From Escherichia coli (GTDB lineage: Bacteria; Pseudomonadota; Gammaproteobacteria; Enterobacterales; Enterobacteriaceae), in assembly GCF_016026235.1 (NCBI RefSeq), contig NZ_CP065613.1: 64,000 nt of DNA; one strand, 5' to 3'. Each line of letters opens with the position of its first letter. Within the stretch, counting starts at the first letter, position 1. Shown one piece after another: positions 1,871 to 19,824 of the stretch. The translations under genes and the position numbers were made by a program. Under the pieces are notes generated by a model. It was not told the DNA's origin. It did no database searches and saw nothing but the letters and a program-made list of their open reading frames with translations.

Positions 1871-2998
1871 TTACTGCGGATATTCCTGCAATAAATTGTG
1901 TAATGCTTCCGCCATCAGCTCACCACGCCAGCCGGAAATCAGCTCCGGCAAATTGTTCTGCGGTTTCAGTTTCCAGTGCCAGTTCAGCAGTTGGTTGATT
2001 TGCCGACGCGATGCCAGCAATTCGGCGCTGATCTTATGCGTTTCGCTCACGTCAGTAATCAGCGACTTAATCGCTTTAAACGCTTTACGATAACCCGGCA
2101 TGTCCATCAGGTTAAGCATCGGCTGCGGTAAGGCATCTTCCGGCAATGTCTGCGCTTTTTCCACCAGCGCCAGCAGCGTTTTACCGTGAAAGCGGATTTC
2201 GCTACCGGATAAACCCAGGCTGTCCAGTTCGCCTAAACTTCCCGGCATATAACGCGCTACCGACCACAAATGCTCTTCACGCACGACAAAGTTCACCGCC
2301 AGATCGCGCTCTCGCGCCTTGCGCAGTCGCCAGTCGGCTAACAGTTGCAGACAGGCCAGTTGGCGTGTGCGTAATTGCCAGGCATTGGTGATATCACGCC
2401 AGGCATCTTCCGGCGCAACGACTTCCTGACGACGCATTTGCATCAGGCGGCATTCATCCAGCGCCGCAGGTAGCCAGCCGGAGGCCTCCGTTTCTACCAT
2501 AAGCTTGGCGGTGATCGGTAACAGATACCAGACATCCGCCGCTGCGTATTCACACTGACGTTCGGTCAGCGGTCTGGCCAGCCAGTCGGTGCGCGATTCA
2601 CTCTTGTCCAGCGTAACGCCGGAATACTCTTCCACCATGGAAGCGAAACCCCATGACATCGGGCGTCCGCAGAAGGCAGCAAGGATTTGCGTGTCAATCA
2701 AGGGTTGTGGTAATTCGCCAAAGACATTGAGGAACACTTCCAGATCTTCACTGCCTGCATGGAGAAATTTTGTGATGGACGGATCGCGCAGGATCGCTTT
2801 CAGCGGTGACCAGTCGGTGATCCCGAGAGGATCAATTAGCGCCAGATGCTCGCCATCGAAAAGTTGAATCAACCCCAGCTGCGGGTAATAAGTGCGCGTA
2901 CGAACAAATTCAGTATCCAGGGCTATCGCCGGAAAGGCACGGACGGCTTCACACAAAGAAGCCAGCGCATCGTCCGTGGTAATCATTTGGTAATTCAA
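1871..2998 (-). CDS. rnd: ribonuclease D
   Basis: 375-aa ORF recognised as RNase D (DTEFVRTRTYYPQLGLIQL motif region). Confidence 0.9.
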   Translation of the reverse strand: MNYQMITTDDALASLCEAVRAFPAIALDTEFVRTRTYYPQLGLIQLFDGEHLALIDPLGITDWSPLKAILRDPSITKFLHAGSEDLEVFLNVFGELPQPLIDTQILAAFCGRPMSWGFASMVEEYSGVTLDKSESRTDWLARPLTERQCEYAAADVWYLLPITAKLMVETEASGWLPAALDECRLMQMRRQEVVAPEDAWRDITNAWQLRTRQLACLQLLADWRLRKARERDLAVNFVVREEHLWSVARYMPGSLGELDSLGLSGSEIRFHGKTLLALVEKAQTLPEDALPQPMLNLMDMPGYRKAFKAIKSLITDVSETHKISAELLASRRQINQLLNWHWKLKPQNNLPELISGWRGELMAEALHNLLQEYPQ

Positions 2999-3067: not shown

Positions 3068-4753
3068 TCAGGCTTTATTGTCCACTTTGCCGCGCGCTTC
3101 GTCACGTAATTCTCGTCGCAAAATTTTTCCGACGTTAGATTTCGGTAACTCATCACGAAACTCCACCAGCTTCGGTACTTTGTATCCCGTGAGCTGACGG
3201 CGGCAAAAAGTCACCAGTGACTCTTCGGTAAGCGATGGATCTTTTTTCACTACGAAGATTTTCACCGCTTCACCACTGGAGCCGGAAGGTACGCCAACAG
3301 CCGCGACTTCCTGTACGCCAGGATGCTGCATGACGACATCTTCAATCTCGTTGGGATAGACGTTAAAACCGGAAACCAGAATCATGTCTTTTTTACGATC
3401 GACAATGCGCAGGAATCCTTCTTCATCCATTACCGCGATGTCGCCGGTGTGTAACCAGCCATTTTTGATGATTTCATCGGTAGCATCGGGACGCTGCCAG
3501 TAACCCAGCATCACCTGCGGTCCTTTGACACAAAGCTCACCCGGTTGACCTGGTGGTACTTCATTATCATCATCATCCACCAGTTTGGCTTCCGTCGACG
3601 GCACCGGCAAACCGATGCTACCACTATGATAATCAATATCATATGGGTTAACGCTGACCAGCGGCGCACACTCGGTAAGGCCATAGCCTTCCAGCAGATA
3701 CTGTCCTGTCAGTTTCACCCAACGCTCTGCCACCACTTGCTGCACTGGCATCCCTCCGCCTGCGGAAAGATGCAGACTGGAGAAATCCAGCTGCTGGAAC
3801 TCTTTATTGTTCAGCAACGCATTGAACAAGGTGTTAACGCCCGTGATAGCGGTAAACGGATATTTCGCTAACTCTTTTACCAACCCTGGAATATCGCGCG
3901 GGTTAGTGATAAGCAGGTTCTGCCCACCCAGTTCGATAAACAGCAGGCAGTTAATGGTCAGGGCAAAAATGTGATACAGCGGCAGCGCCGTCACCACCAG
4001 CTCTTTGCCCGGATGCAACAGCGGACCATAGGTCGCGTTAACCTGTTCCAGGTTCGCCAGCATATTGCGGTGAGTCAGCATCGCGCCTTTCGCCACACCA
4101 GTGGTGCCGCCGGTGTATTGCAGAAAAGCTAAATCTTCCGGCACCAGTTCGGGTTTGACGTACTGCATCCGGTAGCCGTTATGCAGTGCGCTACGAAATG
4201 AAATGGCATCTGGCAGATGGTATTTCGGCACCAAACGCTTGATGTATTTAACAACGAAATTGACTACCGTGCCTTTTGCCGTAGATAGCTGATCGCCCAT
4301 ACGGGTCAGAATTACGTGCTGAACGGCGGTTTTATCAACCACTTTTTCCAGTGTGTGAGCAAAGTTAGACACGATAACAATCGCCGATGCGCCGCTATCG
4401 TTAAGCTGATGCTCAAGCTCACGCGGGGTATACAACGGGTTAACGTTTACGACGATCATCCCGGCACGCAAAATGCCAAACAGCGCCACCGGATATTGCA
4501 ATAAATTAGGCATCATCAACGCAACGCGATCGCCTTTCTTCAGCCCCAACCCTTGTTGCAAATAAGCGGCAAACGCGCGACTGCGTTCTTCCAGCTTGCG
4601 GAAGGTCATCACCTCCCCCATATTCACAAACGCAGGCTGATCGGCGTAGCGCGCGACCGACTGCTCAAACATATCTACCAGAGATTGATAACGGTCAGGG
4701 TTGATCTCCGTCGGAACGTCCGCGGGATAACGGTTAAGCCAAACCTTCTTCAA
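3068..4753 (-). CDS. fadD: long-chain fatty acid-CoA ligase FadD
   Basis: Protein recognised as FadD; annotated N-terminus MKKVWLNRY corresponds to a TTG start 22 codons inside the 583-aa track ORF. Confidence 0.9.
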
Positions 4754-4957
4754 TTCTTCACCTCTAAAATGCGTGTTCGTCGTCATCGCAACCCCAAATG
4801 ATATACATGCCGTTAACATAATATTAACTCATCATACCAGCTTGATAATTACCCAACGAAAAGGTTGCGAAGCGCGTCACTATTTATTTTTATCTTTACC
4901 GTAAGAATGCAGAAACAGCGGACCAGCCGCTGTTTCTTTTTCTTTAAAAACAAGCAA

Positions 4958-5539
4958 TTATTCAGTTACAACTGTTTGTACTCTCGCGGGGCCGGGATTA
5001 TACCAGCCCCATCCGCCGTAGCCATAGGGCCAGCCACGACCGCCATAAAACCATGGATCAATCGGCTGAGGCGGCATAATCACCTGCTGGGTTAAATGCC
5101 AACGTTTGTAACCCGTTACTTGCATCACCATAAATTTATAGGGCGTATTGCCGATTTTGCCGTCAACCGCACCAGTGATTGGCCCGACTACCGTAACCAG
5201 TTGTCCACGGAAATCCACCGGGTCCAGAAAACCGTTCACATCGGCATAAATGCGACCGCGAGAAGGTTCTCCCAGCGTCGGTCTGGCTCCGCTGTCCAGC
5301 GGTACGGTAGCAATTTCCAGGCGGGTTTTCCCTTGCTGGTTTTGTACCGCAACCACTTTGCCACCAAAGCGTGCCTCCTGACCAACGTACAGCTGCGGCG
5401 CACTCATCACCCGAACTAAATCTTGTTGCGGCGTGGGACTGCTGCCTTTAATGGCGTCCGGCACAGTGACACAACCGCTCAGCATTAGCGCAAACGTACC
5501 TGCCAGTATGCCTTTGATAACATTCTTTTGAACCGCCAT
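4958..5539 (-). CDS. yeaY: Slp-family outer membrane lipoprotein YeaY
   Basis: 193-aa ORF with lipoprotein signal (LSGC) and Gly/Trp/Tyr-rich C-terminus. Confidence 0.85.
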
Positions 5540-9113: not shown

Positions 9114-9389
9114 GTGGCTTCTGTTTCTATCAGCTGTCCCTCCTGTTCAGCTACTGACGGGGTGGTGCGTAACGGCAAAAGCACCGCCGGACATCAGCGC
9201 TATCTCTGCTCTCACTGCCGTAAAACATGGCAACTGCAGTTCACTTACACCGCTTCTCAACCCGGTACGCACCAGAAAATCATTGATATGGCCATGAATG
9301 GCGTTGGATGCCGAGCAACTGCCCGCATTATGGGCGTTGGCCTCAACACGATTTTACGTCACTTAAAAAACTCAGGCCGCAGTCGGTAA
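9114..9389 (+). CDS. insA: IS1 InsA (transposition inhibitor / N-terminal part of InsAB' transposase)
   Basis: 91-aa [25 protein letters not shown]... Confidence 0.95.
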
Positions 9390-9811
9390 CCTCGCGCATA
9401 CAGCCGGGCAGTGACGTCATCGTCTGCGCGGAAATGGACGAACAGTGGGGCTATGTCGGGGCTAAATCGCGCCAGCGCTGGCTGTTTTACGCGTATGACA
9501 GTCTCCGGAAGACGGTTGTTGCGCACGTATTCGGTGAACGCACTATGGCGACGCTGGGGCGTCTTATGAGCCTGCTGTCACCCTTTGACGTGGTGATATG
9601 GATGACGGATGGCTGGCCGCTGTATGAATCCCGCCTGAAGGGAAAGCTGCACGTAATCAGCAAGCGATATACGCAGCGAATTGAGCGGCATAACCTGAAT
9701 CTGAGGCAGCACCTGGCACGGCTGGGACGGAAGTCGCTGTCGTTCTCAAAATCGGTGGAGCTGCATGACAAAGTCATCGGGCATTATCTGAACATAAAAC
9801 ACTATCAATAA
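9308..9811 (+). CDS. insB: IS1 insB reading frame (expressed as InsAB' transposase by -1 frameshift)
   Basis: 167-aa frame overlapping insA 3' end; AAAAAAC slippery motif near 9364. Confidence 0.9.
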
Positions 9812-12217: not shown

Positions 12218-13582
12218 GTGATTAGTCTATTCGACATGTTTAAGGTGGGGATTGGTCCCTCATCTTCCCATACCGTAGGGCCTATGAAGGCGGGTAAACA
12301 GTTCGTCGATGATCTGGTCGAAAAAGGCTTACTGGATAGCGTTACTCGCGTTGCCGTGGACGTTTATGGTTCACTGTCGCTGACGGGTAAAGGCCACCAC
12401 ACCGATATCGCCATTATTATGGGTCTTGCAGGTAACGAACCTGCCACCGTGGATATCGACAGTATTCCCGGTTTTATTCGCGACGTAGAAGAGCGCGAAC
12501 GTCTGCTGCTGGCACAGGGACGGCATGAAGTGGATTTCCCGCGCGACAACGGGATGCGTTTTCATAACGGCAACCTGCCGCTGCATGAAAACGGTATGCA
12601 AATCCACGCCTATAACGGCGATGAAGTCGTCTACAGCAAAACTTATTATTCCATCGGCGGCGGTTTTATCGTCGATGAAGAACACTTTGGTCAGGATGCT
12701 GCCAACGAAGTGAGCGTGCCGTATCCGTTCAAATCTGCCACCGAACTGCTCGCGTACTGTAATGAAACCGGCTATTCGCTGTCTGGTCTCGCTATGCAGA
12801 ACGAACTGGCGCTGCACAGCAAGAAAGAGATCGACGAGTATTTCGCGCATGTCTGGCAAACCATGCAGGCATGTATCGATCGCGGGATGAACACCGAAGG
12901 TGTACTGCCAGGCCCGCTGCGCGTGCCACGTCGTGCGTCTGCCCTGCGCCGGATGCTGGTTTCCAGCGATAAACTGTCTAACGATCCGATGAATGTCATT
13001 GACTGGGTAAACATGTTTGCGCTGGCAGTTAACGAAGAAAACGCCGCCGGTGGTCGTGTGGTAACTGCGCCAACCAACGGTGCCTGCGGTATCGTTCCGG
13101 CAGTGCTGGCTTACTATGACCACTTTATTGAATCGGTCAGCCCGGACATCTATACCCGTTACTTTATGGCAGCGGGCGCGATTGGTGCATTGTATAAAAT
13201 GAACGCCTCTATTTCCGGTGCGGAAGTTGGTTGCCAGGGCGAAGTGGGTGTTGCCTGTTCAATGGCTGCTGCGGGTCTTGCAGAACTGCTGGGCGGTAGC
13301 CCGGAACAGGTTTGCGTGGCGGCGGAAATTGGCATGGAACACAACCTTGGTTTAACCTGCGACCCGGTTGCAGGGCAGGTTCAGGTGCCGTGCATTGAGC
13401 GTAATGCCATTGCCTCTGTGAAGGCGATTAACGCCGCACGGATGGCTCTGCGCCGCACCAGTGCACCGCGCGTCTCGCTGGATAAGGTCATCGAAACGAT
13501 GTACGAAACCGGTAAGGACATGAACGCCAAATACCGCGAAACCTCACGCGGTGGTCTGGCAATCAAAGTCCAGTGTGACTAA
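12218..13582 (+). CDS. sdaA: L-serine dehydratase 1
   Basis: 454-aa ORF recognised as SdaA; GTG start. Confidence 0.9.
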
Positions 13583-15618: not shown

Positions 15619-16707
15619 CTATTCGGCCCATATCCCAGATAAAACCCGCCAGCTCACGTGCAACAGCAACAATTGTAATATTGACATTCTTTCCTTTGGC
15701 CTGAAGTTTTCGATACCTCTTACAAAGCCTGAGTTGAGCATCCCATGCTCTGTCAATGACGGGGCGGGGTAAATTTTCCTGCCTTTTTGTATTGCCGGAC
15801 TGATGCGTGCCGGATGACGGTAACTCCACGCTGCCTCGACCAATAGCTTTCTGGCATAGCTGTTTCCGGCTTTGGTAATGCTGCCCTGATGTCTGCTTCC
15901 ACCCGATGAATATTCTGATGGCGTGATACCAAACCATGACATCAGTTGTCGTGGATGTTCAAAACGGGTCAGATCACCCAGTTCAGAAATTAATCCAACC
16001 GCAGTAATAAACTGAATCCCTCGCATGGCTTGCAGCGCCTCTACTACCGGATACAGCCTCCATTCGGTAACGGCCTCCTTCAGGGCGGATTCCAGCCGTT
16101 CACATTGTGCCTGCCGGTCTTCTATTGTACGACGGTGTTCGTCAAAAGCTAATTGTCGCCAGGGACTTTCGAATGAGTATTTGCTGAGCCAGCGTCGGTG
16201 TGCAGGGCCCCAATCTGCTCGCCCGACATAATGGACCCCATGAACCAGAAGAAACGATTTCAGACGTTGCCTTGCATGCCGTAAATCATCGCGGGCAGAT
16301 GCCCATGCCCGGGCCAAATCCCGGAATGCCTCATCTTCAATGCCGGGTACGTAGACAGCAGAAAGATCTCCTGCACGCAGTGAACGCACAAGTCTGATGG
16401 CATCACGGCGATCGGTTTTAACCCGCTCCCCCGGTTTTTTCGGGATAAGTGAGGGGGCGCAGACCATGCAGTCAAAACCGGATTTCACCAGCCGACGATA
16501 AAGTCCATAACCACAGGGCCCCGCTTCATAAACGATACTGACCTGCGATGACTTTGACCTGAGACGTTTACAAAGATTCTGAATATCAGTAGGTGATGTG
16601 CCAATTTTACCCATCAGTTCAACAGGTTCTGAATTGATAGCATAAGCGACAGTAATCGATTCTTTGTGAACATCTAACCCGACGTACAATGTGTTATTGT
16701 TGTTCAT
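15619..16707 (-). CDS. IS110-family transposase (DEDD RuvC-like N-terminal domain, IS116/IS110/IS902 C-terminal domain)
   Basis: N-terminus MNNNNTLYVGLDVHKESITVAYA and C-terminal ITAVGLISELGD...GITPSEYSSGGS...KAGNSYARKLL motifs; start taken at M17 of the 378-aa track ORF. Confidence 0.8.
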   Translation of the reverse strand: MNNNNTLYVGLDVHKESITVAYAINSEPVELMGKIGTSPTDIQNLCKRLRSKSSQVSIVYEAGPCGYGLYRRLVKSGFDCMVCAPSLIPKKPGERVKTDRRDAIRLVRSLRAGDLSAVYVPGIEDEAFRDLARAWASARDDLRHARQRLKSFLLVHGVHYVGRADWGPAHRRWLSKYSFESPWRQLAFDEHRRTIEDRQAQCERLESALKEAVTEWRLYPVVEALQAMRGIQFITAVGLISELGDLTRFEHPRQLMSWFGITPSEYSSGGSRHQGSITKAGNSYARKLLVEAAWSYRHPARISPAIQKGRKIYPAPSLTEHGMLNSGFVRGIENFRPKERMSILQLLLLHVSWRVLSGIWAE

Positions 16708-16833
16708 GCTGGCCTCCGTGGTGGAAATACCGGGGTGTAGCAACAGCTCACCCATGCGGCTCTGACAACGATGTTAACCCGCGTTAAATATCCCACGTTG
16801 GCCAGCATCTGTCTCACGGAAAGTCATACTGCC

Positions 16834-18852: not shown

Positions 18853-19824
18853 GTGACCATTGCTATTGTTATAGGCACACATGGTTGGGCTGCAGAGCAG
18901 TTGCTTAAAACGGCAGAAATGCTGTTAGGCGAGCAGGAAAACGTCGGCTGGATCGATTTCGTTCCAGGTGAAAATGCCGAAACGCTGATTGAAAAGTACA
19001 ACGCTCAGTTGGCAAAACTCGACACCACTAAAGGCGTGCTGTTTCTCGTTGATACATGGGGAGGCAGCCCGTTCAATGCTGCCAGCCGCATTGTCGTCGA
19101 CAAAGAGCATTATGAAGTCATTGCAGGCGTTAACATTCCAATGCTCGTGGAAACGTTAATGGCCCGTGATGATGACCCAAGCTTTGATGAACTGGTTGCG
19201 CTGGCAGTAGAAACAGGCCGTGAAGGCGTGAAAGCGCTGAAAGCCAAACCGGTTGAAAAAGCCGCGCCAGCACCCGCTGCCGCAGCACCAAAAGCGGCTC
19301 CAACTCCGGCAAAACCAATGGGGCCAAACGACTACATGGTTATTGGCCTTGCGCGTATCGACGACCGTCTGATTCACGGTCAGGTCGCCACCCGCTGGAC
19401 CAAAGAAACCAATGTCTCCCGTATTATTGTTGTTAGTGATGAAGTGGCTGCGGATACCGTTCGTAAGACACTGCTCACCCAGGTTGCACCTCCGGGCGTA
19501 ACAGCACACGTAGTTGATGTTGCCAAAATGATTCGCGTCTACAACAACCCGAAATATGCTGGCGAACGTGTAATGCTGTTATTTACCAACCCAACAGATG
19601 TAGAGCGTCTCGTTGAAGGCGGCGTGAAAATCACCTCTGTTAACGTCGGTGGTATGGCATTCCGTCAGGGTAAAACCCAGGTGAATAACGCGGTTTCGGT
19701 TGATGAAAAAGATATCGAGGCGTTCAAAAAACTGAATGCACGCGGTATTGAGCTGGAAGTCCGTAAGGTTTCCACCGATCCGAAACTGAAAATGATGGAT
19801 CTGATCAGCAAAATCGATAAGTAA
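18853..19824 (+). CDS. manX: PTS mannose transporter subunit EIIAB
   Basis: 323-aa ORF with Ala/Pro-rich hinge; GTG start after AGGAGG. Confidence 0.9.
   Translation: MTIAIVIGTHGWAAEQLLKTAEMLLGEQENVGWIDFVPGENAETLIEKYNAQLAKLDTTKGVLFLVDTWGGSPFNAASRIVVDKEHYEVIAGVNIPMLVETLMARDDDPSFDELVALAVETGREGVKALKAKPVEKAAPAPAAAAPKAAPTPAKPMGPNDYMVIGLARIDDRLIHGQVATRWTKETNVSRIIVVSDEVAADTVRKTLLTQVAPPGVTAHVVDVAKMIRVYNNPKYAGERVMLLFTNPTDVERLVEGGVKITSVNVGGMAFRQGKTQVNNAVSVDEKDIEAFKKLNARGIELEVRKVSTDPKLKMMDLISKIDK

Follow-up and report, generated by a model that had tools for sequence, protein, structure and literature searches.

Where translation of fadD begins is a question raised by the reading frame itself. In the 64,000-nucleotide stretch of Escherichia coli DNA analyzed here (the window), the fadD coding sequence, which encodes the long-chain-fatty-acid--CoA ligase, occupies positions 3068..4753 on the minus strand (561 aa and a stop codon; RefSeq and curated K-12 annotation). 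It lies within a 583-aa open reading frame (3068..4819, minus strand) that opens at an ATG exactly 22 codons 5′ of a TTG at 4751..4753, the initiation codon according to both the sequence and the annotated start. The initial annotation had placed the FadD N-terminus MKKVWLNRY at this TTG, 22 codons inside the longer frame. Sequence, curated K-12 annotation, PGAP, conservation and family profile all agree with the placement, and the 22-codon interval is exact.

The window corresponds to the E. coli chromosomal segment yeaW-yeaX-rnd-fadD-yeaY-tsaB-yoaA and onward. Of 5,426 complete E. coli genomes, 5,425 contain a match to the fadD 5′ region, at 100% identity in many, including O157:H7 and K-12-lineage genomes. 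Positions 4690-4960 are 100% identical to K-12-lineage records, and the fadD coding sequence differs from that of K-12 at four bases; given this near-identity, published work on K-12 fadD applies to the present sequence.

The TTG start and Shine-Dalgarno sequence of fadD

The minus strand at 4753..4751 reads TTG and continues as AAG AAG GTT TGG CTT AAC CGT TAT, encoding (M)KKVWLNRY. Black and colleagues reportedly determined the Edman sequence of FadD in 1992 and are said to have given the Met codon as TTG. The curated K-12 gene (fadD, b1805; 1888061..1889746, 1686 nt) starts at TTG, and the PGAP RefSeq annotation of the O157:H7 record contains a fadD CDS equivalent to window positions 3068..4753, again with a TTG start. 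The EcoGene set of N-terminally sequenced proteins includes fadD (EG11530) with TTG as the true site. Searchable supplements (TRAINSPOTTER, Fijalkowski 2024) hold no initiation-profiling or N-terminomics record for this codon, and a literature search for a fadD TTG or UUG start returned nothing relevant to E. coli fadD besides Hon-yaku.

Protein family models set the same boundary. Scanned against the full 583-aa ORF, the NCBIfam equivalog NF006523 (FadD) reaches 1171 bits (cut-off 884), and positions 1-560 of its 561 fall on ORF residues 23-582, with profile position 1 at the TTG codon. Related long-chain CoA-ligase profiles begin at ORF residues 23-26, and residues 1-22 found no match in the family profile scan. 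The protein contains the Pfam domains AMP-binding (PF00501, 5e-101) and AMP-binding_C (PF13193, 3e-19). Its genomic context is likewise that of FadD, comprising the gene order yeaY-fadD-rnd and a promoter block resembling a FadR operator, with rnd downstream of fadD in 80/80 loci. Acyl-CoA synthetase activity of K-12 FadD on C12-C18 fatty acids is established in the literature.

A Shine-Dalgarno (SD) sequence, AGAGGTGA (4758..4765, minus strand), is positioned 4 nt 5′ of the TTG. Its GAGGTGA segment forms a 7-bp SD match whose duplex with the 3′ end of 16S rRNA has an energy of -11.7 kcal/mol; the corresponding energies for the rival in-frame ATGs located 11 and 22 codons upstream (the -11 and -22 ATGs) are -5.9 and -3.7 kcal/mol. 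fadD thereby presents the arrangement expected for UUG initiation, an in-frame TTG and an SD at functional spacing. UUG-start genes have been reported to tend toward strong SDs, and in a reporter system UUG was 6-8 times weaker than AUG or GUG. The 5′ leader, extending from the published transcription start (an A at ~4813) to the TTG, measures 60 nt (4754..4813, minus strand). Folding of the first 100 nt from +1 is less stable than that of 200 of 200 dinucleotide shuffles (z=+2.49), and no conserved leader RNA structure was detected (consensus energy -0.59 kcal/mol, no compensatory pairs).

Comparison of 80 Enterobacterales fadD loci, taken from one genome per species and spanning Escherichia and Citrobacter to Yersinia, Serratia, Pectobacterium, Erwinia and Edwardsiella, reveals that the codon aligned to the TTG is TTG in 75 and GTG in 5, with neither ATG nor a non-start codon in any. 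All 80 retain the SD at constant spacing, in the form AGAGGTG or AGGAGT, and its columns undergo 0-3 Fitch changes each. Parsimony counts on a neighbor-joining tree give 16/6/151 changes by codon position for fadD codons 2-15, 31/30/57 for the stretch from the -11 ATG to the SD, and 96/123/106 farther upstream. This contrast between codon positions indicates that strong protein-level constraint sets in precisely at the TTG. At the codon's first base the tree records 2 transversion changes, whereas 23 four-fold sites in these loci average 12.0, with a minimum of 6 (Poisson P=0.0005); with so few transversions, it is the T itself that has been kept, and not merely some start codon.

UUG starts are reported to switch generally to AUG. 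Retention of the fadD TTG runs counter to that trend and fits the association of UUG with strong SDs. Judged from these alignments, the pairing of a weak codon with a strong SD in fadD is old and selectively maintained across Enterobacterales. The TTG start of fadD is correct, ordinary, and known and annotated since 1992.

The fadD promoter and the upstream ATG codons

The published fadD transcription start lies 60 bp upstream of the start codon, and counting 60 bp from the TTG leads to an A at ~4813 as +1. The -22 ATG (4817..4819, minus strand), the first codon of the 583-aa ORF, occupies promoter positions -4 to -6, and with +1 at 4813 downstream of it, the published start puts this ATG off the mRNA. 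The same transcription start leaves the -11 ATG on the fadD transcript. A probable -10 hexamer, TAATAT (4821..4826, minus strand), is assigned from its position 7 nt 5′ of the published start and is kept as TAATAT or TAAAAT across genera. A generic promoter scan instead called TTAATA-18-TATCAT (4827..4798), which misfits the published transcription start and was rejected; the scan did not report TAATAT at 4821..4826.

Upstream of the hexamer, a FadR operator-like sequence, AGCTGGTATGATGAGTT (4826..4842, minus strand), can be read at -13 to -29 relative to 4813, and the operator-like block AACTGGTACGCTGAGTT is kept in nearly all 80 loci. The FadR operators described for fadD by Black and colleagues in 1992 reportedly lie at -13 to -29 and -99 to -115. 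AGCTGGTATGATGAGTT (4842..4826) and a second FadR-like sequence, GGCTGGTCCGCTGTTTC (4928..4912), fall exactly at these offsets from 4813, and the match serves as an internal check on the position of +1. Two FadR sites have been reported at fadD, the second of which a review places near -100. The sequence of the published fadD CRP-site probe (Feng & Cronan 2012) is found at 4852..4899 on the minus strand. An inverted repeat between yeaY and fadD (4911..4937) forms a terminator-like hairpin that includes GGCTGGTCCGCTGTTTC, such that AGAAACAGCGGACCAGCCGCTGTTTCT, the hairpin following yeaY, overlaps with fadD's upstream FadR-like site. One palindrome may thus act as both the yeaY terminator and a fadD repressor site.

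That the -22 ATG (4819..4817) is the real fadD start, with the TTG an internal leucine codon, is vanishingly improbable. This codon is an ATG, opens the longest ORF, and occurs in E. coli, Citrobacter, Kosakonia, Buttiauxella and others, but it sits 4-6 bp upstream of the mapped transcription start and has no usable SD, its -3.7 kcal/mol match being badly placed. It is also embedded in a conserved promoter block, GAGTTAATATTATGTTAAC, and its location inside the conserved -10/operator block accounts for its presence; the segment containing it reads ...AACTGGTACGCTGAGTTAATATTATGTTAAC..., with ATT in place of ATG in many genera. Many taxa lack the -22 ATG or carry in-frame stops at -6, -13, -14, -16, -17, -20 or -21 (Chimaeribacter, for instance, has its stop at -6, Brenneria at -13, Pantoea coffeiphila at -14 and Raoultella at -16). 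Coding-type constraint is absent upstream of the TTG, residues 1-22 of the 583-aa ORF are covered by no family profile, and a -22 start conflicts with both curated annotation and the N-terminal sequencing set. Use of this ATG, which the initial annotation had set against its own TTG assignment, is contradicted by transcription start, conservation, constraint and profile, and the 583-aa reading is effectively refuted. As to upstream starts, the initial annotation had given the -22 ATG correctly and overlooked the second in-frame ATG at -11.

The latter (4784..4786, minus strand; leader +28) is a candidate minor start for a 572-aa form, preceded at 5 nt by an SD-like GGGG (4792..4795, minus strand; GAGG in other genera). 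Two accounts of this block compete. In one, the ATG (4786..4784) is really used alongside the TTG, either to make a 572-aa proteoform or as a ribosome-loading or competing site that tunes UUG initiation; we regard this as unlikely, though worth entertaining. In the other, which we find rather improbable, GGGG-N5-ATGACGAC is a non-coding regulatory element (a protein, small RNA or standby site) in which the ATG is incidental. Presence on the fadD mRNA at leader +28 is compatible with use of the codon, as is its occurrence at precisely -33 nt in 69 of 79 loci, among them the otherwise diverged leaders of Mixta, Pantoea, Brenneria, Pectobacterium and Y. pestis; it is missing in the other 10, and Chimaeribacter has an out-of-frame ATG 32 nt upstream together with a stop in the fadD frame at -6. 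That Chimaeribacter retains a leader ATG in another frame is in turn a point for the regulatory element. The GGGG/GAGG motif has undergone 3-5 Fitch changes, compared with 12-20 in neighboring leader columns, and its duplex energy of -5.9 kcal/mol provides the -11 ATG with an SD of its own on the same mRNA. An SD-like motif and an ATG at correct spacing resemble a ribosome-binding site, which argues against the regulatory account. The first three codons past the ATG vary chiefly at third positions (10:14:37), but beyond them the extension shows no coding constraint, and the ATGACGAC block is conserved as nucleotides while the remaining putative extension is unconstrained as protein, as a regulatory element would predict. 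No conserved RNA structure explains the block, which favors use of the ATG; the lack of conserved structure or covariation also tells against a regulatory element, and the fadD literature examined places no known regulator site at ATGACGAC, even though a review expects small RNA control of fad genes, not yet mapped for fadD. Among start-site data, the Hon-yaku predictor favored the -11 ATG and included fadD among its candidate multi-start genes, scoring the true site 0.013 and the false site 11 codons longer 0.663. Tetracycline-inhibited ribosome profiling (Nakahigashi 2016, Table S5) lists fadD as alt-N'(new) at -33, 572 aa. The TetRP signal there is 4.04, not far above the detection floor, and CmRP is 0. 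The 4.04 value recurs in another row, strong sites reach ~1,300-1,400, the authors caution that many weak sites may be noise, and fadD is absent from the re-assigned starts in their Table S2. The text of the Meydan 2019 preprint does not mention fadD. Protein sequencing reportedly gave the TTG-initiated N-terminus, and searchable supplements (TRAINSPOTTER, Fijalkowski 2024, Nakahigashi 2016) contain no peptide for a longer FadD.

Two-site initiation in fadD across Enterobacterales, combining a weak UUG with a strong SD (561 aa) and a used upstream AUG with a weak SD 33 nt away, is a tentative proposal whose truth we doubt. If it held, the second site would yield a minor 572-aa proteoform or would set FadD synthesis per transcript as a competing or loading site. 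The -11 ATG leaves the verdict on the TTG as the principal fadD start unchanged.

Non-ATG starts and insertions elsewhere in the window

RefSeq genes were placed on the window by BLAST, with O157 coordinates failing beyond ~8.7 kb owing to insertions. The PGAP starts mapped in the window comprise 53 ATG, 9 GTG and 1 TTG. GTG starts had also been proposed for sdaA, manX and rsmF, and these agree with the RefSeq starts and with curated K-12 gene lengths. All three map to the plus strand: sdaA at 12218..12220, with no upstream in-frame alternative; manX at 18853..18855, again with no upstream in-frame alternative and with the SD AAGGAGG upstream; and rsmF at 37026..37028, with an in-frame ATG two codons upstream. 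Further GTG starts, omitted from that list, are present at yoaA (8242), nudL (11456), mgrB (25570), mepM (59139), ruvA (63482) and yebB (63757), and the curated rnd TTG at 2998 had likewise been overlooked. As of 2006, only 81 UUG starts were annotated in K-12. A TTG start is uncommon but normal, and that of fadD is textbook-annotated.

The curated K-12 start of rnd, adjacent to fadD on its downstream side, is a TTG at 2996..2998 (minus strand), and PGAP begins the gene at an ATG at 2986..2984, giving lengths of 1128 nt (375 aa; K-12 b1804) versus 1116 nt (371 aa). Among the 80 loci, the position of the curated TTG carries TTG in 76, GTG in 3 and CTA in 1. Eight of the 80 have a non-start codon (CTG, ATA, TTT, TAC or TTA) where PGAP places its ATG, and the residues between the two positions, N/T-Y-Q, are conserved. 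Conservation of the TTG, together with loss of the ATG in 8 loci, renders the curated rnd start the better supported, and on these alignments the PGAP start looks four codons too short in many E. coli records. A UUG start for rnd, which encodes RNase D, is already known (Zhang & Deutscher 1989, J Biol Chem 264:18228).

Several differences between strains were observed along the window. The fadD gene is 95.1% identical to that of O157:H7 PV15-279, and its flanking genes are 98-99.5% identical; the fadD mismatches cluster at 3500-4500 (40 and 36 per 500 nt), with 100% identity across the 5′ end and promoter. This distribution looks like a recombination patch inside fadD. An IS1 element at 9114..9811 (plus strand) contains InsA and InsB ORFs (Pfam HTH_Tnp_IS1, Zn_ribbon_InsA and DDE_Tnp_IS1) and sits where K-12 and O157 carry yoaC, a gene not recovered when genes were mapped to the window. 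Between pdeD and yoaE lies an IS110-family transposase ORF of 378 aa (15619..16755, minus strand; Pfam DEDD_Tnp_IS110 and Transposase_20). Neither K-12 nor the O157 record used for comparison has this insertion, which accounts for ~1.5 kb of extra sequence.

Initiation at fadD and comparison with known systems

fadD is almost certainly translated mainly from the TTG at 4753..4751, through a scheme in which promoter, SD and UUG act in sequence and the -22 ATG goes untranscribed. Transcription would begin at ~4813 from a promoter repressed by FadR and activated by CRP, generating a largely unstructured leader of 60 nt. The strong SD, GAGGUGA, lying 4 nt before the UUG, would position the 30S subunit, and initiator fMet-tRNA would read the UUG to produce the 561-aa product opening with MKKVWLNRY. 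Decoding of UUG by the initiator tRNA explains why FadD begins with Met. The -22 ATG would be a by-product of the fadD promoter sequence. We infer that the weak codon and strong SD together would cap FadD synthesis per transcript and have been retained for that effect; the literature search did not find a TTG-to-ATG experiment on fadD.

The importance of the core result is confined to annotation quality. Because TTG is the start codon of both fadD and rnd, fadD is over-extended by 22 codons under the longest-ORF rule and by 11 by one predictor, and rnd is cut by 4 in PGAP. The order-wide TTG of fadD and rnd is a small, clean example of a weak start codon under selective maintenance, contrary to the general switch from UUG to AUG. 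Should the -11 AUG prove functional, fadD would possess paired strong-codon/weak-SD and weak-codon/strong-SD starts controlling enzyme output, a property of practical relevance given that FadD is widely manipulated in fatty-acid metabolic engineering.

K-12 fadD (b1805; Black, DiRusso, Metzger & Heimert 1992, J Biol Chem 267:25513) shares with the present gene the same TTG, 561-aa product, 60-nt leader, two FadR sites and CRP site, although the strain differs from K-12 by 89 mismatches in the first 8.8 kb and by IS insertions elsewhere. The dual in-frame starts profiled by TetRP (Nakahigashi 2016) and Ribo-RET (Meydan 2019) include validated cases with reporter or peptide support; compared with those genes, the fadD signal is minimal and unvalidated.

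The closest comparison lies immediately downstream. Like fadD, rnd has a TTG in curated K-12 that is equally conserved, and its weak start codon serves an enzyme of low abundance, RNase D. Experiments have addressed how the UUG and an upstream U-rich region control rnd translation, and our literature search found no comparable study of the fadD UUG. The two genes differ in SD strength, with almost none at rnd (-2.9 kcal/mol) and a strong one at fadD (-11.7 kcal/mol). Within the two-site proposal, the conserved UUG common to fadD and rnd would suggest deliberate translational throttling of both.
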